The position numbers and the translations under genes were made by a program. DNA of 64,000 nt from a virus (Duplodnaviria; Caudoviricetes), in the IMG/VR virus record IMGVR_UViG_3300020042_007950, positions 18,324-82,323 of that record; one strand, 5' to 3'. Of the stretch, positions 1,436-57,628 are shown piece by piece. The first letter of the stretch is position 1. Each line of letters opens with the position of its first letter. Below the pieces are notes generated by a model that ran no database searches, was not told the origin of the DNA, and saw nothing but the letters and a program-made list of their open reading frames with translations.

Positions 1436-1867
1436 ATGCCTTATCCTACTACAACTGACAACTTACTTGATAACACTTTAACAAAAGTAAGTCAAGGACT
1501 AGCTATAAACAGAGTTTGGGCTAATAATTCTGGAACTGTTTCAAGCAACTCTTTAAAGCTTGCAAACCAAAAACCACCATCTTCACATCTTACTACTATT
1601 CCTGGTATATTTGATAATACGTTTATAGCAATTATGGAAGATGCTAGTTCAGTTTCTTATGATGCTGCAACTATTATAAGAAATAGAATAGTTTCAATTG
1701 TAGGAGTTGCAATTACTAATATAAACGCAGCTTTTACGGCCGGAATAGCAACATGGTCTGTAGAAGTTGTAGACTATAAACTAACTGGAATACCAATATC
1801 AGATGGGGCTGGAGGGTTTATCCCAATAGTGTCTATAACTTGCCAAATCAATTTATATGTAGCATAA
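1436..1867 (+). CDS. Hypothetical protein, probably structural
   Basis: 143-aa ORF in the structural block; its stop overlaps the next start (TAATG). Confidence 0.55.
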   Translation: MPYPTTTDNLLDNTLTKVSQGLAINRVWANNSGTVSSNSLKLANQKPPSSHLTTIPGIFDNTFIAIMEDASSVSYDAATIIRNRIVSIVGVAITNINAAFTAGIATWSVEVVDYKLTGIPISDGAGGFIPIVSITCQINLYVA

Positions 1868-3024
1868 TGACTCTACTAGAACTAACCCAGACATTAACGG
1901 CCAGGCCATGGTTCTTAAAAAAAGGGCCTGCTTTAGTAGCTAGAAAATTTAAAGTTAGTTTACATGACGCCACTGCAGCATTAAAAATTGCAAGAGCAAA
2001 GAGTAGAGAAGTTAATAGAAAAGTTGTAACAGTTGAAGTATCTAACGATTCTGATAATGTTATTACAGAATTTGAACAGTATTTAGATAAAAACGGGATT
2101 GATCACTCAATGGTCAATTCCGTTAAATACTGGCAGAATATGAAAGGAGAACAACGGTTCTCTGTAGTTACCAAAAATGATAGGTCAGCAGAAGAAATTC
2201 AAAAAGACATTGAAGAATTTGCAGCCAGCTATAGCCCTAAAGCTAGAGTTATAACTAAAGGCAGAGGAGTTGACTACAAAGTGAAGTCAACTTTAGAGAT
2301 CTCTTTACCTGATATTCATTATGGAAAGTTAACAGATATTACCCTAGAAGAGATGGAGAAACAATTCCTTGATACAATTGAGGATTTAGTTACTAAAGGT
2401 CGAGGGATAAATATCGAAAAGATTCTTCTCCCAATTGGAAACGATGGGATGAACACAGACGGAATGAGAATGGCTACAACAAAAGGTACCCCTCAACACG
2501 ATACTGTAGGATGGAAAGAATCATTTAAAGGATACTGGACTCTAATAGTTAGAGCAGTAGATTTCTTGAAAGATGTGGCTCCAGTCGATATCATTGTTGT
2601 ATCGGGAAACCATGATTACGAGAGAATGTTTTATGCTGGGGATGTCCTAGCCGGGTGGTATAGAAACGACCCAAGTGTTACTGTAGATAACTCTACAATG
2701 CCAAGAAAATATTACAAGTACGGGAAAAACATGATAATGTTTACCCACGGAGATAACGAAAAACCTTCAGATATGCCACTAATAATGGCTACTGAGCAAC
2801 CGGAAATGTTTGCAGCAACTGAGTTTAGAGAAGCTCATTGTGGACATTACCATAAAGAACAGGTAAACGAATACCGAGGTGTTAAAGTAAGATTTCTTCC
2901 TTCAATATGTGCTCTAGATGAGTGGCATAAGAAGATGGGATATCAAGCATTAAGAGCAGCTCAGGCATTCATTTGGAATCACGACGAAGGACTTGAAGGA
3001 TATTTACAAAGCAATGTTAGATAA
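1867..3024 (+). CDS. Calcineurin-like metallophosphoesterase
   Basis: Motifs DIHYG, GNDxxNTD, GNHD, HGD and GHYH. Start moved to ATG 1867, which is coupled to the upstream stop. Confidence 0.8.
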   Translation: MTLLELTQTLTARPWFLKKGPALVARKFKVSLHDATAALKIARAKSREVNRKVVTVEVSNDSDNVITEFEQYLDKNGIDHSMVNSVKYWQNMKGEQRFSVVTKNDRSAEEIQKDIEEFAASYSPKARVITKGRGVDYKVKSTLEISLPDIHYGKLTDITLEEMEKQFLDTIEDLVTKGRGINIEKILLPIGNDGMNTDGMRMATTKGTPQHDTVGWKESFKGYWTLIVRAVDFLKDVAPVDIIVVSGNHDYERMFYAGDVLAGWYRNDPSVTVDNSTMPRKYYKYGKNMIMFTHGDNEKPSDMPLIMATEQPEMFAATEFREAHCGHYHKEQVNEYRGVKVRFLPSICALDEWHKKMGYQALRAAQAFIWNHDEGLEGYLQSNVR

Positions 3025-4267: not shown

Positions 4268-5165
4268 AAGAAAAGACGGGTCATACTCTAAAAGAGGGCT
4301 TTGGGATAATATAAGAGCTAACAAGGGTTCTGGCAAAGAGCCTACTAAAGAAATGTTAAAACAAGAATCTAAAATAAAAAAAGAAGAAAACATGAACTCA
4401 ATGTATAAGAAAGGAGGCAAAGCCCCTAAGAAAAAAATGATGAATAAAGAGTCTTTTCTAGAAGAGTCTAAAGAAATGGAGTTTGGAGCTCCAGGAACTA
4501 AACCTCCTATGAAGAAAAAAATGATGGGAGGAATGTACAAAAAAGGTGGATTCCCAGATCTTAACGGAGATGGTAAAACAACTTTTGCCGATGTTCTTAA
4601 AGGAAGAGGTGTAGGAAAAAAGATGATGGGAGGAAAGTATGAAATGGGTGGTCCTGGTGATGGTACTACTACTAGAAAAAATCTTCTTGGGCAAACTGTA
4701 ACAGAAAACAGATCAGGTTTAGATTACGATAAAACCGTTACAAGAAAAAACGGTACTGTAGCTAGACAAAGTGGAGTAAAAACAGATGCTTTTAATCCAG
4801 AAACAGGTACTTCAGATACAAACAACTTTTACAGCAAAAAATTTGATAGAGCTGGAAACTTAAAAAGCTCTTCAGCTAGCAGAGAAAAATACATCCAAGA
4901 AGATAAAAATTCAAAAGGTGAATATGACGGTAATTCCGTACCATATGTTTCATCAGCCAAAGCTAATAGAAATGGAAAAGTTACTCGTGAAAATGGGTAT
5001 AAAACAGTAGATAATCCTAGCAGATTAACTATTAATGAGTCAAGCTCTTCTTCAAAAAGAGATTTAAAAGAAAAAGCTAAACAAAGCAGAGCAAGTTTTA
5101 AAACTGGAGGAAGCATGTTTGAGACAATGCTTGATAAACTAAAAGTTAAAGGTAAAAAGAAATAA
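4251..5165 (+). CDS. Basic low-complexity virion protein with xxKGG/MMGG repeats and an EF-hand-like loop
   Basis: Repeats MYKKGG, KKMMGG, YEMGG and FKTGG; loop DLNGDGKTTFAD at 4557-4592. Confidence 0.6.
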   Translation: MSKMIKRKDGSYSKRGLWDNIRANKGSGKEPTKEMLKQESKIKKEENMNSMYKKGGKAPKKKMMNKESFLEESKEMEFGAPGTKPPMKKKMMGGMYKKGGFPDLNGDGKTTFADVLKGRGVGKKMMGGKYEMGGPGDGTTTRKNLLGQTVTENRSGLDYDKTVTRKNGTVARQSGVKTDAFNPETGTSDTNNFYSKKFDRAGNLKSSSASREKYIQEDKNSKGEYDGNSVPYVSSAKANRNGKVTRENGYKTVDNPSRLTINESSSSSKRDLKEKAKQSRASFKTGGSMFETMLDKLKVKGKKK

Positions 5166-6580: not shown

Positions 6581-9500
6581 ATGGCATCAGAATTAAAGTT
6601 TTTAAAGGGAATGAACAAAGATACTGGTCTTTCAGATCAGGTCGACGGTACATATAGAGATGCACTTAATGCTGTAGTAGACATTAATAAAGGAGCTATT
6701 AGCAATGAATTTGGAAACAAACTTGTAGCAAGTCTTCCAACTGGATATTTACCTGTTGGCCAGATTGCTCTTCCTGATGATAACTTTATAATCTTTGCCA
6801 ACAAAGCTGGTACTCCAACATCTACTTCAAGTATTTTCCTTGTAAATACCTCCACAAATGTTTTATCTGCTTTACTTACAACAAATACTGGAGAACTAAC
6901 TGGGCATCTAAACTTTGATATAGACAACCCTATTACAGGGGAATTCAGAGTTTCTCCTACAGGAGAAATCATTGTGTACTTTACTGATAACAAATACAAG
7001 TTCACAGTAGAACCTGTAACTAAGATTGAATACCCAGAGTACTATAATCCTCCACGAGTGTTTAATGTTACAAGACAACAGATTTTTTTAAGTACTGGAG
7101 GTACCCCAAACAAATTATATACATTTACAGGACAAAACATAACCATGCTTAACATGTTTATGGACTCTGGTAGAATTCCTGAATTTAATGCAGCTTCTAT
7201 AATAGAGGGTGGTGGAGTTGTAACAGGGGCTTACTATTTAGCAGTTGCATATGCAGACAAAGACTTCACTGAAACTAACGTTTTAGGGATGGCTAATCCA
7301 GTGTACGTTCACCCATCTTCAGAAAGTTACATCCCATTTGAAATGATTGGAGGAGCTCCAGGTGGAGTTGAAACAAACAAATCTATCAAATGGGATTTAA
7401 CAAGTTTAAACATTGACTATAAATATATTGTACCATACGTACTTCAAAAAATAGGAGAAGTTCAATTTGTATACAAACTTGAATTTGTAGAAATTAAAAC
7501 TACAACTATAAGCATTACATATAGTGGTTTAGAGCAAGTAGATAAAGCCACAGTAGAAGATTCAGTATTAGATAAAGTTAACTACCTCAGTGCAAAATCT
7601 ATTGCACAGTTAGATAACAGAATGTATGCCGCAAACTTAACTGGAAGAAAAGACCTAGGTTTTCAAAGATTTGCTAACGGAATACGGTTGCAAGCCGTTA
7701 CAAAAAATATTCTAGAATTCGATCCGAGAGCTTATGATATATATAACATTAATGTAGGATATGCTGCCGTTTCAAAAAATGTAGACTACCCTTTTCCAAC
7801 GGATTATAACTATATTTCTGCAGTAACTTACCTAGTTCAAAATGGAAAAGACAGAGGGTATAGAAATATAAATAGATTGTTTAAAGAAAAAAGTTATAGA
7901 AGAGGAGAAGTATACTCATTCTATATATCTTTTATATTTAAAGATGGTACAGAAAGTTATGCATACCACATTCCTGGACGTAATGTAGTTAAATCTTGGG
8001 AAAACGGCCCTTTAAATAATGTTGATGTTTCAGGATTTAATCCTGTAGAATTTATAGAAACAAACCCAAATGGGTTAATGTATCAATATTTAGATACAAG
8101 TTTATACGTTTCTCAGAGTACAGGATATTGGGAAAATAGAAATGAAACTTACCCAGACTCTCCAGACTTTGATATTTATAGTGTAGATGGAGCAGGATCT
8201 CCAGTGCTTTCAGGATCTATAAGAAATCTAAATGTTAGGCATCACAAAATGCCTTCTAATCATAATCTTTCATTTTCTACATTAGTAACTAGTATAGATT
8301 TTTCTTTTCCCACACTTGCCAATTCATCTGTTTCAACAAGTGCACAAACTAAATTTAACGAAAATGTTAGAATATTAGGATTCAAACTTGAAAATTTAAA
8401 AATTCCTAAATTTATTCTTCAGCAAGTGCAAGGTTATAAAGTGTATTATGCAAAAAGAAATCAAGGAGACAAAACAATTATAGGACAAAGTGGGTTGCAT
8501 CCATCCGAATGGATTAAATCTGGAAATTTATATAATAAAAGGCAAACAGCTATGTTTGGACCATATTACCATATGTGGCAAATGGGTGCTCTTCCATATT
8601 CAGGTTCGTTTGCTTATACAAATTATCCTTGGGCAAGTACCTACAATGATAATGTAGCAGCTCAATCAGTATTTAAATTCCATGATTTTAATTTACTTAG
8701 AACTCAAAAAAGTTTAGGGCAAGCAACTCACATAGATTTGCAATACGTTGCAACAATGCATCAATGGAGGGGAAGGCATAAGGGTATACAACCTGGAAAT
8801 ATAGATGGTGAAGGAAACTTTGATTCTAGTACTTATTATACACAATTTAGAAGTGGAGAATCAGAATATCAATGGATAAACTCTACTCTAGCAAACACAG
8901 ACAATTACGATAATACATCGGATGATACGTCAGTTTACAGTACTCCAAGTGCATATGGTTTATTAATGGTAGCTGCAAAATATAGCCCACCTGGAGCCAG
9001 TGGTGCAAATGATTATGGAGTAAGTGTTGCTGGAGTAACTGGAAACCAAAGTTATTTAGGAGTAAATCAAACTATATTCCCACTAGATCCTGATAGTGCA
9101 AGTTACTTGGCAGGAATGTCAATTCTTAAAAACAGTTCTTCTACGGCATTTAAAGGGGCTACATATTTGTTAAATTTAAGTGGAGAAAGTTCAATTGTAC
9201 TTGGTTTAAAATCAGGCATACCTCCTTTACGTGGTACAAACATAAACTTACTTGGAGAAGATTTTGCATTTTTAAGAAAAGTAAATGTAGAGAATGCTCA
9301 AAACGGGCCTGTAACAACTGGCAGACCTAATGTTTATATAGCTAATTTATGTTCAACTAAAACAGATGTATTTGAACCGTTTGATGCTCAAAGGTTAGTG
9401 TGGACTGGATTTTATAAATCTACATTACTAGTTAACATAATTACAGGTGGGGATGTAGACGGAACTAATTACTACACAGGAGTAAGAACTTCTGACATTT

Positions 9501-53737: not shown

Positions 53738-54115
53738 TCAATCATACAACTGAATTTCTACATAATATGCACGATCTGCATACTCCACTCTTACGTAAGT
53801 AGCATCATCGTAATCCATTAAGTACACCCAGCATTTCTCACCATCTTCATCAGTTGATTGCCACTCTTCAGTTTCGCTATCAATTCTTCTGTATTTGCTA
53901 TTGACAAATCTTTTAGTTTGATAAGGAGACTTCATAATAAGAGTGTCTTTGTGCATGATTACAGGGAAATCAATCTCTCTCATATCACTCCATATGTATT
54001 CTCCTTTAACATCCTCATTTAAATGAGCAATACTTAGAGAAACACCATGGAATACTGATGGTTGTGCAATTGCTACATTAGCAAGCAACATAAATGCAAA
54101 AACGATTTTCTTCAT
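53738..54115 (-). CDS. Secreted/periplasmic protein
   Basis: Signal peptide MKKIVFAFMLLANVAIA-Q. Confidence 0.65.
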   Translation of the reverse strand: MKKIVFAFMLLANVAIAQPSVFHGVSLSIAHLNEDVKGEYIWSDMREIDFPVIMHKDTLIMKSPYQTKRFVNSKYRRIDSETEEWQSTDEDGEKCWVYLMDYDDATYVRVEYADRAYYVEIQLYD

Positions 54116-54163
54116 AATTGTTTGGTTTTAAATTGTGTTTATTAGTAATTAAATCTTTGCTAT

Positions 54164-54222
54164 AAAAAAACAAGTCAGTAGCCATAAGAGAGCATTGCCA
54201 ACTCTCCTATGGTACTACTTGC
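54164..54222 (-). terminator. Intrinsic terminator downstream of twister B
   Basis: 11-bp stem CCAUAGGAGAG/CUCUCUUAUGG (one G-U pair), outer CAAG/CUUG extension, then U7. Confidence 0.7.
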
Positions 54223-54238
54223 CTAATCATTAACCTAA

Positions 54239-54362
54239 CCCTCTGTACTCAATCACAAAACTCGGCTAAACTATGTTGTTTATATGCATTTCAAACATAG
54301 TCTTTATAACGCTGTCTCTATTTTGTAATTGCTTAGCCTTGGGAACTAAGAATGGTACATTA
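54239..54362 (-). ncRNA. Twister self-cleaving ribozyme (copy B)
   Basis: UAA, P2 UGUA/UACA, T2 CC/GG, P4 CUUAG/CUAAG, loop UUCCCAAGG, 11-bp P5, then GA-GGG (T1 CCC/GGG). P1 is weak. Confidence 0.8.
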
Positions 54363-54365
54363 AAA

Positions 54366-54391
54366 TGCCTAGGAGATTTCTCCCCTAGACA
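54366..54391 (-). other. 11-bp GAAA-tetraloop hairpin immediately 5' of the twister B cleavage site
   Basis: UGUCUAGGGGA-GAAA-UCUCCUAGGCA followed by UUUUAA. Confidence 0.7.
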
Positions 54392-54433
54392 CTTTTGTTT
54401 AACAGCGACCTTTTATACTAACAAATCGAAAAA

Positions 54434-55036
54434 TTAGTTAAAGATTTCTCCTGTTGCTGCAGAGATACCAGCTGGTATACCTGTAGTCTTTGATTCTACT
54501 GCATCCATTGCTAAGAATACGTGATTAGCTTTGTGGAAAGCCATACGTGTATTAGCAAAGATATACAGACCTTGATGTGTGCAATAAGCACCATCTTTAC
54601 CTCTACGTTTAGCAGAGGTTTCGATGTTGTTGAGCTGATACTCAGTAGGCTGAGTAGTCTCTGCAACTTCTACCTTCAATGGAATTTCTTCCCCATTAAC
54701 AATAGCTACTGGATTAAGGATGTTCAATGGAAGAACTTCACGTCCCATTGCATCAATAGTCCAAGCATCATTGTTATCAGACAAATCAATGCCTAACAAT
54801 GTCGTAGCAGCTTTCGCTTCTACTGTTAACCAAGCACGACGTGCTCCTCCTTGAGAAAAACGGTCATCACCTGCATTAAATAAAGCCAGAGGATTAGCTG
54901 ATTGTGTAGACTCTTTTTGAAGAACCTCAGCAAATTCCAACTGCAATTTTTGTCCATTCACTTTCCTAGCTTGGACTAACAAGGTGCTATTCATTGACAA
55001 ACCTGCCAATGAACCGCTGTTTAGAGTGTTACTCAT
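54434..55036 (-). CDS. Hypothetical protein
   Basis: Start taken at MSNTLNSG (55036); 200 aa. Confidence 0.65.
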   Translation of the reverse strand: MSNTLNSGSLAGLSMNSTLLVQARKVNGQKLQLEFAEVLQKESTQSANPLALFNAGDDRFSQGGARRAWLTVEAKAATTLLGIDLSDNNDAWTIDAMGREVLPLNILNPVAIVNGEEIPLKVEVAETTQPTEYQLNNIETSAKRRGKDGAYCTHQGLYIFANTRMAFHKANHVFLAMDAVESKTTGIPAGISAATGEIFN

Positions 55037-55107
55037 GATTTTTATATGTTGATTTATGATTAAATCCAAATTTGAAAGCAGTTTCAACACTTGCTTAGGT
55101 GATTTTG

Positions 55108-55269
55108 TTATAGTTCCATTAAGTGGAACTCTACTCTAATGAGAGGTCTTTCGATGAGTTGTACATCACCTCTAAGATACTTTTTACCATCAATGGTAAT
55201 TACATCTTCTTTATCAATGATGTCACGTTGTTCATCACTGTGTGCATAATACCTTACGACTTTATGCAT
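55108..55269 (-). CDS. Small hypothetical protein, 53 aa (not in the ORF track)
   Basis: Translated by hand: MHKVVRYYAHSDEQRDIIDKEDVITIDGKKYLRGDVQLIERPLIRVEFHLMEL. Confidence 0.6.
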   Translation of the reverse strand: MHKVVRYYAHSDEQRDIIDKEDVITIDGKKYLRGDVQLIERPLIRVEFHLMEL

Positions 55270-55481
55270 AATTTATACTTAAATGAAAATGTCCAAGGAG
55301 CAATGTTTACTCCTTCTCCTATTTTTGTAATTCTTTCTAGCAATCTACCTTCTGCATCTCTAACAAAATGAGGAACACTAACAATATCTTTTGATAGCAA
55401 AGGTTCTTTACTTCTGTCCTCAAATTTTACTATGAGTTCAGTGATATCATTATCAAGTTTGTTTACTGAAAATTCTGCCAT
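55254..55481 (-). CDS. Hypothetical early protein
   Basis: 75-aa ORF in a tightly packed small-gene array. Confidence 0.55.
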   Translation of the reverse strand: MAEFSVNKLDNDITELIVKFEDRSKEPLLSKDIVSVPHFVRDAEGRLLERITKIGEGVNIAPWTFSFKYKLCIKS

Positions 55482-55483
55482 AA

Positions 55484-55669
55484 TTATTCTTGTGTTATAT
55501 TATTAGCAACTCGTTTGAATCCCATTCTCATAGGACCAAACATGAACGCCAGCCAATATGAGTCCTCATATTCTGGTAAACATTCCCCAAAGGCAATGGT
55601 TGGAACGAATACAAATACTCGTTCCTCCCAATACCAATGGATTTGAATGTGGTGTTTAAGCTTTCTCAT
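55484..55669 (-). CDS. Hypothetical early protein
   Basis: 61 aa; ATGA overlap with the upstream gene. Confidence 0.5.
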   Translation of the reverse strand: MRKLKHHIQIHWYWEERVFVFVPTIAFGECLPEYEDSYWLAFMFGPMRMGFKRVANNITQE

Positions 55670-55875
55670 TGATGCATTGATGTGTAAAAGATAGACACAA
55701 TGATACCAATCATGCTAAGCAATACACAGTAAGTAGCATTATGTATGCACAAGAAGTACACACTAATGTCGAAATTAACTAACGCAGCAAGTAATGCTGG
55801 TGCTACAAATACAGCTGTGAATACAGCAGCTAATTCTGCTAATCCACGAAATAGTTGTTTGAATTGCTTTCTCAT
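55666..55875 (-). CDS. Small two-helix membrane protein
   Basis: Two hydrophobic stretches. Confidence 0.55.
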   Translation of the reverse strand: MRKQFKQLFRGLAELAAVFTAVFVAPALLAALVNFDISVYFLCIHNATYCVLLSMIGIIVSIFYTSMHQ

Positions 55876-55877
55876 GA

Positions 55878-56087
55878 TTAATCTTGTTTTAATGGATTAG
55901 CAAAATTGTAACGTTCTGTAACTCTGTATTCAGAGTTATAAGGCTTGATAGTTCCCTTGTCATCGTAATAGCAAGGGTTTTTGCCACCACTACGTGTTGC
56001 AATAGAGTGTGCATTACATGATGATAGCATAGCTATCGATAAGATTGTTGCAAAGTAAAGCAACACATACGCTGTTGATTTTTTCAT
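55878..56087 (-). CDS. Small lipoprotein
   Basis: Lipobox-like MLSS-C after a hydrophobic signal. Confidence 0.6.
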   Translation of the reverse strand: MKKSTAYVLLYFATILSIAMLSSCNAHSIATRSGGKNPCYYDDKGTIKPYNSEYRVTERYNFANPLKQD

Positions 56088-56111
56088 GATTATTTATAGG
56101 TTAATTGATTA

Positions 56112-56119
56112 CAAATATA
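56112..56119 (-). promoter_or_regulatory. Bacteroidota -7 promoter element (TATATTTG)
   Basis: TAnnTTTG upstream of the ATG at 56087, preceded by an AGGCA/TGCCT hairpin. Confidence 0.5.
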
Positions 56120-56158
56120 TAAGGCAGTTTGTCTACATGCCTAGGTATACGACGAATA

Positions 56159-56410
56159 TCACGTCCTTTCTATTGTAACTTTAATAACTACTTCGTGTAG
56201 TTTAGTAGGCTGATAATCATTATCATATGGATAATCATCATCAGGACTGCTATCCATTTTACGACGTAGATCTTCTAATGCATCTCTGTCATTAATTTCT
56301 TGACGAGCTTCCTCGACTTCTTTAATAACTTTAGATGTGTACAAGATTGTACTCATTAGGTCATCTATATCCACACTTGGATACTTTACTATAAATTCGT
56401 TTAGATTCAT
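56159..56410 (-). CDS. Hypothetical acidic early protein
   Basis: 83-aa ORF immediately downstream of twister A. Confidence 0.55.
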   Translation of the reverse strand: MNLNEFIVKYPSVDIDDLMSTILYTSKVIKEVEEARQEINDRDALEDLRRKMDSSPDDDYPYDNDYQPTKLHEVVIKVTIERT

Positions 56411-56441
56411 GGTTAATAAATGTTAGTTAATGATTTGATTA

Positions 56442-56544
56442 TGTACCACTCTGCATTCAGTTGTCCGTTCGACGATATAGTATTAGACTATAAGGTTATT
56501 ACAACTGCTTACCCTTGTGAAGTAAGTTGTGATGCATTAATACA
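56442..56544 (-). ncRNA. Twister self-cleaving ribozyme (copy A, type P1)
   Basis: P1 UGUAU/GUACA, UAA, P2 UGCA/UGCA, T2 UC/GG, P4 CUUAC/GUAAG, loop UUCACAAGG, P5 CAGUUGU/ACAACUG, then GA-GUG (T1 CAC/GUG). Covaries with copy B. Confidence 0.85.
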
Positions 56545-56545
56545 A

Positions 56546-56604
56546 ACCAACAACATATCGGTCGAAAGACTTATATAGATAAATCAGACCTCAATGCTGT
56601 TGGC
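56546..56604 (-). other. Long hairpin immediately 5' of twister A
   Basis: 11-bp GCCAACAGCAU/AUGUUGUUGGU, inner GGUC/GACC and GAUUUAU/AUAAGUC. Confidence 0.6.
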
Positions 56605-56610
56605 TAATGA

Positions 56611-56790
56611 TTAAACTTTTGATCTTAATTCTTTGATGTGGAATATTAGTAACCATACTGTGAATGCAGAAACAAACGATACGAATGTAATTACATACAC
56701 TGATGGATTGAGTAATACCACAGTAAAATACAACAATGCAAAGCTGTCAAGCATAGCAATGATAATGATAGTCAATAGAAAGTATTTCAT
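56611..56790 (-). CDS. Small two-helix membrane protein, 59 aa (not in the ORF track)
   Basis: Translated by hand: MKYFLLTIIIIAMLDSFALLYFTVVLLNPSVYVITFVSFVSAFTVWLLIFHIKELRSKV. Confidence 0.6.
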   Translation of the reverse strand: MKYFLLTIIIIAMLDSFALLYFTVVLLNPSVYVITFVSFVSAFTVWLLIFHIKELRSKV

Positions 56791-56829
56791 AACAATGTGT
56801 TATATAATTTGATAGACTAATTTGTAGGT

Positions 56830-57050
56830 ATTAGTTAATGACCTTGATAATGATGGTGAAGACCCTGGTGGGCAATCACTTAATCTTTGGTACTACACCT
56901 AAATTCCCATTTATGTAGTATTAGCTTCATTGATTAACAATAGGGGAACAAGCCTCCCAATTCTACTTATTGTTTAGTCAATCAAATCTACCATAGGACC
57001 CAAAGATCTCGTGATTACTATCAGGCTCTCCGATCATCCCCGAAGGGCAG
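56830..57050 (-). ncRNA. Highly structured RNA, possibly a circularly permuted twister-like ribozyme
   Basis: Helices UAAUCAC/GUGAUUG and AUCUUUGG/CCAAAGAU flank a GAG/UAA internal loop; L4-like UUAUCAAGG; nested 9-, 7- and 7-bp stems; cUUCGg hairpin. P4 has a C-C mismatch. Confidence 0.45.
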
Positions 57051-57051
57051 C

Positions 57052-57234: not shown

Positions 57235-57251
57235 GGCAATGAAATATTAGG

Positions 57252-57260
57252 TTATCCACA
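57252..57260 (+). promoter_or_regulatory. Perfect DnaA box (TTATCCACA)
   Basis: Exact consensus 9-mer in the divergent intergenic region; a single copy was seen. Confidence 0.35.
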
Positions 57261-57628
57261 GGGCCACCTTGACCCGTCGATGCTTAGTGGGGTCTTTGAT
57301 TCTGTAGGGCCTCACTCTCAAAAAATTTTTCCCCACAAAAAAAATTTTCAGTTGGTTACAGTCGCTAACCATCTTATATGCTCTTGCATATTGTATTAGG
57401 CAAATCGTTAATTCTATATGTTAATGCATGTTAAATCATACACAGCAATTCGGTAAACTTCCGAGTTTGGCCATGTTTTGTTACGGAGTTTGGCAAATCT
57501 AATTCGTACCCGTCAAGGTATTGCAATATGCAAAAACCACATTAAAGTATCATACAGGGTATAAAACCAACTAATATTAGGAGTTATAACGGACATTACT
57601 TACTATAGTGTGGTAACAATTTTCTATG

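Follow-up and report, generated by a model that had tools for sequence, protein, structure and literature searches.

Do the intergenic sequences that separate a series of small phage genes specify RNAs which cut the very transcript in which they lie? The question is raised by positions 54164-57050 of a 64,000-nucleotide (nt) stretch of DNA (hereafter the window), which comprises bases 18324-82323 of IMG/VR record IMGVR_UViG_3300020042_007950, a complete viral genome of 82,323 bp with direct terminal repeats. In this region small minus-strand open reading frames (ORFs) follow one another at the head of a leftward replication block, and a first-pass annotation had reported, three times in less than 3 kb, a stop codon followed by a stable hairpin and a twister or twister-like RNA. 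Two of the three cases, designated A and B and situated within 2.2 kb, withstood the analysis presented here; the third, element C, did not. We consider A and B likely to be self-cleaving ribozymes that act in cis, belong to a phage-restricted subfamily of twisters of type P1, and would cut the leftward transcripts between U and A (U^A).

Twister A (56442..56544, minus strand; 87.5 bits with our covariance model R1, with family covariation, the coordinates being read from the sequence) is of type P1 with a P5. Its P1 consists of 5 bp (56544-56540 with 56446-42; UGUAU/GUACA) and is followed by the predicted cut site between U-1 (56539) and A+1 (56538), by P2 (56536-32 with 56456-52; UGCA(U)/(A)UGCA), by P4 (56526-22 with 56512-08) with its loop L4 (UUCACAAGG; 56521-13), and by P5 (56507-01 with 56464-58). 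The GA dinucleotide is located at 56451-50, and the pseudoknot T1 is made up of CAC (56519-17) and GUG (56449-47). Twister B (54239..54362, minus strand; 86 bits with R1) possesses P5 and no clean P1. Its predicted cut site lies between U-1 (54362) and A+1 (54361), P2 at 54359-55 with 54248-44 (UGUA(C)/(G)UACA), P4 at 54350-46 with 54336-32, L4 (UUCCCAAGG) at 54345-37, P5 at 54331-20 with 54261-50, GA at 54243-42, and T1 pairs CCC (54343-41) with GGG (54241-39). The cleavage positions named in the first-pass annotation coincide with these predicted U-1/A+1 steps. In both copies the twister elements occur in the canonical order, that is P1 (A only), U^AA, P2, P4/L4, a large P5, P2', GAG and T1. 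A core of about 45 nt is common to A and B, with a compensatory change in the hairpin stem, and this two-block core is found exactly twice in the 82-kb genome. The differences between the two copies are compensatory in P2 (UGCAU/AUGCA versus UGUAC/GUACA), P4, P5 and T1 (CAC:GUG versus CCC:GGG). The P5 insert of B also contains, at 54292-54299 on the minus strand, a TAnnTTTG box resembling the -7 element of the Bacteroidota.

Relatives were gathered through the neighbouring 218-amino acid (aa) protein, and include L003, which is 97% identical, and the distant L006. Among these relatives the core is far better conserved than the 218-aa protein; UAA and GAG are present in A, B and every protein-anchored relative bearing the element (in the wider set described below, these letters are partly fixed by the search pattern and filter). 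A second conserved block, CUGA-NNNCA-GAG-NNN, lies downstream of the first, and the stretch between the blocks is variable, measuring about 81 nt in B and 49 nt in A, compared with 11 nt in L003 and 113 nt in the L006 copy of A. The orthologues of B in L003 and L006 retain the fold through compensatory changes in P2, P4 and P5, next to a protein which is merely 63% identical, and P5 in the L003 copy is reduced to a 4-bp hairpin. Twister B is absent from L004 and L005. Two other structural proposals were discarded. An outer three-way-junction stem of B, CGCUGU/ACAGCG, appears in the minimum free energy (MFE) fold and was dropped because L003 has lost the 3' strand of this stem and L006 has a different 5' strand. 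The A/B core as a terminator plus promoter, or as a DNA-level hairpin promoter, was abandoned in view of the distal second block and its covariation.

Comparison with other viral contigs establishes the fold, the conservation and the covariation of A and B. A search pattern that specified the first block only, leaving the P2'-GAG block open, found matches in at least 119 viral contigs. Among the matches listed, an exact 5-nt P2 complement followed by GAG is present 11-311 nt downstream in 101 of 112 unique cores; the middle pair of T1 occurs in three states (C:G 86, A:U 8, U:A 1), and the base at the L2/P2 junction, position 5, which had been left free, is paired as C:G (86), U:A (10) or U:G (1). 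In an alignment of 66 sequences 91.0% of the cells are paired, compared with 81.3% in shuffled alignments (0 of 500) and 29.7-50.9% when the partners are slid against each other. Pairing amounts to 100% in T1, to 99.7% in P4, with two covarying positions, and to 93.6% in P5, where 9 of 11 pairs have changed on both sides. All six positions of P1 covary, as do two positions of P2 (C-G with U-A); the 100% pairing of P2 in this alignment is by construction since the rows were selected on P2, the independent figure being the 101 of 112 cited above. The mean length of P1 is 3.0 contiguous bp versus 1.25±0.12 with swapped partners, in 66 distinct P1 sequences, and roughly one third of the family members have a P1 of 0-1 bp. 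G-U pairs are frequent, which renders the signal strand-specific and therefore a property of RNA rather than of DNA. The reading of A and B as RNAs of twister type, located between or after small genes and encoded on the same (minus) strand as these, is supported.

Within the window, and equally within the complete genome, model R1 recognizes A and B alone; in five other large contigs it recognizes one or two copies each. Among about 186,000 species genomes there were six family matches, all of them in freshwater contigs of metagenome-assembled genomes (MAGs), two of these contigs being placed in Bacteroidota bins. The ribozyme is carried by L132 (JBBALJ010000002.1, 81,638 bp) and L131, which were binned in Bacteroidia and Sediminibacterium MAGs; L132 holds two copies 2.0 kb apart, is about as long as the present genome and is probably a mis-binned relative, giving a weak hint of a Bacteroidota host. 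In two further contigs (L022 and L075) a second TAATGCACC... core starts straight after the GAGGG of the first, forming tandem ribozymes.

We took the definition of the twister class from two reviews (PMC5408937, PMC6154101) and from the Rfam models RF03160, RF03154 and RF02684. In the consensus given by these reviews P1, P2 and P4 are essential and P0, P3 and P5 optional, together with two pseudoknots (T1 and T2), a scissile U-A and an active site that contains a conserved G and A; P5 is reported for about 1% of twisters and P3 for about 78% (PMC6154101). The phage family possesses P2 with four Watson-Crick pairs, P4/L4, T1, the letters of the scissile site and, considered as a family, P1. 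Its conserved unpaired nucleotides (UAA, the L4 motif UUcCAAG and A-P2'-GAG) are those of the Rfam twister-P3 consensus, L4 being UUCNCAAGG compared with GUUcCAAGUC in that consensus. T2 could be formed between the GG of L4 and the CC (B) or UC (A) that follows P2, at positions which are invariant or wobble-compatible. The order of elements is that of twister type P1 (Roth et al. 2014, as summarized in PMC5408937 and PMC6154101), namely P1-U^AA-P2-L2-P4(L4)-P5-P2'-GA-T1-P1', and the likeness extends to a T1 of three bp between L4 and L1, the L4 motif U..C.CAAG., the conserved G and A beside the cut site, four canonical P2 pairs and, upstream of both A and B, a hairpin at the position of P0. 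Unlike the known twisters, and judged from its sequences, the subfamily is marked by a large P5 (11-311 nt) in every member and by no P3, by an L4 longer by one nucleotide, an extra U, by CC or UC in L2 as the putative partner in T2, by a variable L4-closing pair and a possible fifth pair in P2, and by escaping all Rfam twister models; B, in addition, is without P1. In 2 of 11 contigs a Hatchet ribozyme precedes the twister variant by about 1 kb on the same strand (L014:191-325, 82.4 bits; L021:46-208, 81.1 bits; gathering threshold 51), and the clustering of self-cleaving ribozyme classes is a known hallmark (PMC6765202). Because these features of the class are present, and because the nearby Hatchet ribozymes fit this clustering, we class A and B as a variant twister and infer that they cleave.

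In one contig, L010, which bears the variant with P1 and P5, a sub-threshold match to type-P3 twister was observed at 1792-1855 on the minus strand (25.8 bits; gathering threshold 39.9), and phages such as this one may hold several twister types.

A number of observations weigh against the assignment of A and B to self-cleaving twisters. Rfam, which the first-pass annotation had proposed as a check, gave no match to any ribozyme family between 53500 and 58000 even at E≤10; at gathering thresholds it recognized nothing in the whole window, and its twister models likewise failed to match 141 nt of the compact L003 copy, L065, L009 and L041. The departures from the consensus comprise the extra U in L4, CC or UC in place of the "GC" of L2, and variability of the pair which closes L4, published as an essentially invariant G-C. 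T2 is beyond the covariation test because its nucleotides are invariant, and its first nucleotide covaries with the base before P2' (C:G 86, U:A 10, among the matches listed), which implies either a P2 of 5 bp or a shortened T2. As for B, it has no contiguous P1 pairs; since a mini-twister lacking P1 still cleaves, P1 being dispensable (PMC5408937), this does not disqualify it. Its U-1 is predicted to be paired inside the upstream hairpin, which could compete with folding of the ribozyme, and if termination at that hairpin and its U4 were efficient B would rarely be transcribed. Cleavage and the chemistry of the resulting ends, moreover, are ascribed to A and B by analogy with the twister class.

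The genes and hairpins around the two ribozymes are arranged as follows, all on the minus strand. Upstream of twister A lies a small ORF for a hydrophobic protein of 59 aa (56611..56790), which is kept in L005 and L006. Just past its stop codon a long irregular hairpin (56545..56605; -24.8 kcal/mol, z score -6.4) adjoins P1 of A and occupies the place of the optional stem P0; it is kept in L005, L006 and L123, and in L006 an extra hairpin of about 60 nt is found between it and the ribozyme. About 30 nt past A is the start codon (ATG 56410) of an 83-aa ORF (56159..56410). Twister B is situated in the 3' untranslated region (UTR) of the 218-aa ORF (54434..55090; stop at 54434), which has no match in Pfam or PHROGs and the true start of which is probably ATG 55036, giving 200 aa. 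Past this gene there is a terminator-like hairpin with a GAAA tetraloop, an A-tract and a U-tract (54362..54395; -20.1 kcal/mol, z score -6.3), the 3' strand of which reaches U-1 of B. It is retained with compensatory changes in L003-L006 and, because it is kept in L004 and L005, both without twister B, we regard it as an independent element. Downstream of B a hairpin resembling an intrinsic terminator, followed by U7 (54163..54226; MFE -29.3 kcal/mol for 60 nt, z score -7.0), is conserved in L003, and beyond it a 125-aa ORF with a signal-peptide-like N-terminus begins at ATG 54115 (53738..54115).

A stable hairpin does precede both A and B, as the first-pass annotation had it. The layout of hairpin plus ribozyme is preserved in the close relatives and not across the family, in which the 60 nt upstream of the ribozyme are no more structured than control windows. 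An abutting hairpin is not preferred in members without P1 (19% versus 14%). Since neither comparison reveals a preference, the unit of stop codon, hairpin and ribozyme is lineage-specific. The idea that the hairpin replaces P1 in those members is, on the same figures, unsupported.

Transcription of the leftward (minus-strand) small-gene region would enable each ribozyme to fold and to cut between U and A, at 56539/56538 in A and at 54362/54361 in B. The cut in A would release the RNA of the 59-aa gene, which would then terminate in the stable hairpin bearing a 2',3'-cyclic phosphate. The remaining RNA, that of the 83-aa gene and of the later genes, would start with a 5'-OH followed by the folded ribozyme, some 30 nt ahead of the start codon. 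The cut in B would trim the 3' UTR of the 218-aa gene right after the GAAA hairpin and would free a fragment of about 200 nt containing the ribozyme and the terminator. To judge from these positions and from published suggestions, an effect on mRNA stability or translation may follow. In the early transcript of phage T7 the RNase III sites likewise present a stop codon, a stable hairpin and the next gene, and the hairpin stabilizes the 3' end of the upstream mRNA. In T7 a host enzyme cuts inside the hairpin, whereas here the RNA itself would cut just past it, leaving the 2',3'-cyclic phosphate and 5'-OH.

With its predicted 5'-OH at one end and 2',3'-cyclic phosphate at the other, the 2.18-kb fragment between the cuts in A and B could be ligated by the RtcB of the host to yield a circular mRNA. 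A phage-encoded RtcB was looked for and none was found. In the account of hammerhead arrays by Perreault et al. (2011; PMC3088659) circular products were sought and none were found.

Of the rival explanations the one which survives best is that A and B are active and are carried on recombining, hitch-hiking modules of no specific benefit to the phage, their adjacency to hairpins being incidental; we regard it as unlikely. The family is intergenic and is oriented as the next gene, and the genes downstream are small and unrelated (69 clusters among 86 downstream ORFs); clustering of these 86 ORFs disclosed no tie to a particular flanking gene family. A near-invariant core amid unrelated genes is what such modules would produce, and the absence of B from L004 and L005, where the hairpin and the gene are present, can be read in the same way. 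So can the fact that L006 resembles the window far more closely in its non-coding DNA than in the adjacent protein, as well as the lack of an upstream hairpin as a family feature. Against this, the orientation and position are steady: the next gene starts at a median of 93 nt downstream, and a same-strand start falls within 150 nt in 68% of cases versus 25% for opposite-strand ORFs. The ribozyme is present in one or two copies per genome and does not form an expanding repeat, and compensatory change maintains its fold.

It is somewhat less probable still that the RNAs adopt a twister-like fold which does not cleave, serving instead as a structured leader or 3'-UTR element, for example as a protein-binding site or stability element. 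The deviations in L4, in the pair that closes it and in the T2 partner would be accounted for, as would the failure of the Rfam twister models and the want of P1 in B. Against this reading, conservation is highest at the nucleotides relevant to catalysis (A+1, the G of GAG, and T1), T2 partners vary among twister types (AC with GU in the Rfam P3 consensus), and Hatchet ribozymes occur nearby in two contigs.

The full model of the first-pass annotation envisaged three sites, including C, at which early polycistronic RNA made by a virion RNA polymerase would be processed without host RNases. It is very improbable. Two of its three sites are real, the small same-strand genes do stand in series at the head of the leftward replication block, and PolA is distantly crAss-like, its best matches being to crAss-like phages at 27-31% identity. 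Element C, in contrast, failed every test. The spacer in which it was placed (56791..57051, minus strand) lies outside the ribozyme family and is conserved only in the CCCUUCGGGG hairpin at its 5' end. There was no match to Rfam at E≤10 (291 nt) or to R1, and no alignment to A or B; the element folds no better than shuffled sequences (z score +0.13), and its central part of about 100 nt is exchanged for unrelated sequence in L003. The cUUCGg hairpin is kept as CCCUUCGGGG in L003 and L006 and is thermodynamically undistinctive (z score -1.1). Giant virion proteins, two of them 2366 and 2501 aa long, form part of the genome layout, and among them no virion RNA polymerase was recognized by comparison with PHROGs or with the sequences of the PDB. 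The terms "early", virion RNA polymerase and single polycistronic transcript are assumptions as far as this region is concerned. Lastly, a DNA-level element (promoter, operator or hairpin promoter for a phage RNA polymerase) has next to nothing to commend it for, intergenic, conserved and of inverted-repeat character as A and B are, and with a TAnnTTTG box in P5 of B, their compensatory pairing reaches across a variable insert of 11-311 nt, a pseudoknot is present, many of the pairs are G-U and so hold for one strand only, and the region shows no enrichment of Bacteroidota -7 boxes (6 observed versus 3.0±1.9 expected).

Some further observations concern the surroundings of the ribozymes. A phage nucleotide search with the region gave no match. 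The 218-aa gene is the part of the region best covered by assembled metatranscriptome contigs, which come from four freshwater studies, end at 54404-54453 and reach neither ribozyme; one metatranscriptome contig bears a twister core that belongs to another phage. At the head of the leftward small-gene cluster the non-coding DNA (57240-57400, minus strand) is near-identical in the distant relative (L006:1261-1385), with different flanks, and holds repeated GGGGAAAAATTTTT-like boxes; this DNA may serve the cluster as a promoter or regulatory leader. At 1840-3024 on the plus strand lies a 394-aa ORF, the weak Pfam matches of which, one to a calcineurin-like phosphoesterase and one to the GhoS endoribonuclease, fall under the curated cut-offs. 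Among the other contigs, L014 carries a phage-borne tmRNA (8424-8820; 62.7 bits, over the gathering threshold) and L010 a match to a Y-RNA-like (YrlA) RNA (5023-5086; 37 bits, under the gathering threshold).

The first-pass annotation knew of no description of this layout for a crAss-like early region; in kind the layout is not new. Perreault et al. (2011; PMC3088659) describe hammerhead ribozymes which flank genes in phage and prophage transcripts, and propose processing into gene-length mRNAs; in the same account the 5' end of an early polycistronic transcript of halovirus HF2 was mapped to the ribozyme cut site, and hammerhead arrays cleave in vitro and in E. coli. What the two cases share is ribozymes on the coding strand, placed between phage genes that are small and variable; they differ in the ribozyme class and in that cleavage was demonstrated there, whereas in A and B it is predicted. 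The possibility of circular products was also raised in the 2011 work. A review of 2019 (Nucleic Acids Research; PMC6765202) suggests the same gene-length processing role for twisters. It also mentions twisters engineered into bacterial 3' UTRs, where cleavage alters the expression of the upstream gene (Felletti et al. 2017, cited in PMC6765202); B shares the 3'-UTR placement, and differs from these reporter constructs in lying naturally between a hairpin and a terminator. What is new is the documentation of the subfamily, its size and its restriction to phages, the system-level idea being known.

We put forward, tentatively, a wider proposal: that the phage ribozymes form a distinct, phage-restricted twister subclass marked by an obligatory long P5, no P3, the longer L4 and a CC:GG T2, with one or two copies per genome in at least 100 freshwater phage contigs, upstream of diverse small genes, and that here, coupled to a P0-like hairpin, they may create mRNA 3' ends by self-cleavage after the hairpin rather than by termination or host RNases. 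As the subfamily is undetected by Rfam, phage annotation pipelines skip it, and twister counts from viral metagenomes are underestimates. The biological role of the thousands of twister and hammerhead ribozymes in genomes is described as largely unknown (PMC6765202, PMC5408937). In this phage a single presumed operon offers two contrasting natural contexts: the first ribozyme separates two cistrons, some 30 nt ahead of the next start codon, and the second lies in a 3' UTR, flanked by a hairpin and a terminator. Together with relatives which lack one copy or possess a shrunken P5, these contexts would make a practical system for studying the effects of cleavage on mRNA stability and translation.

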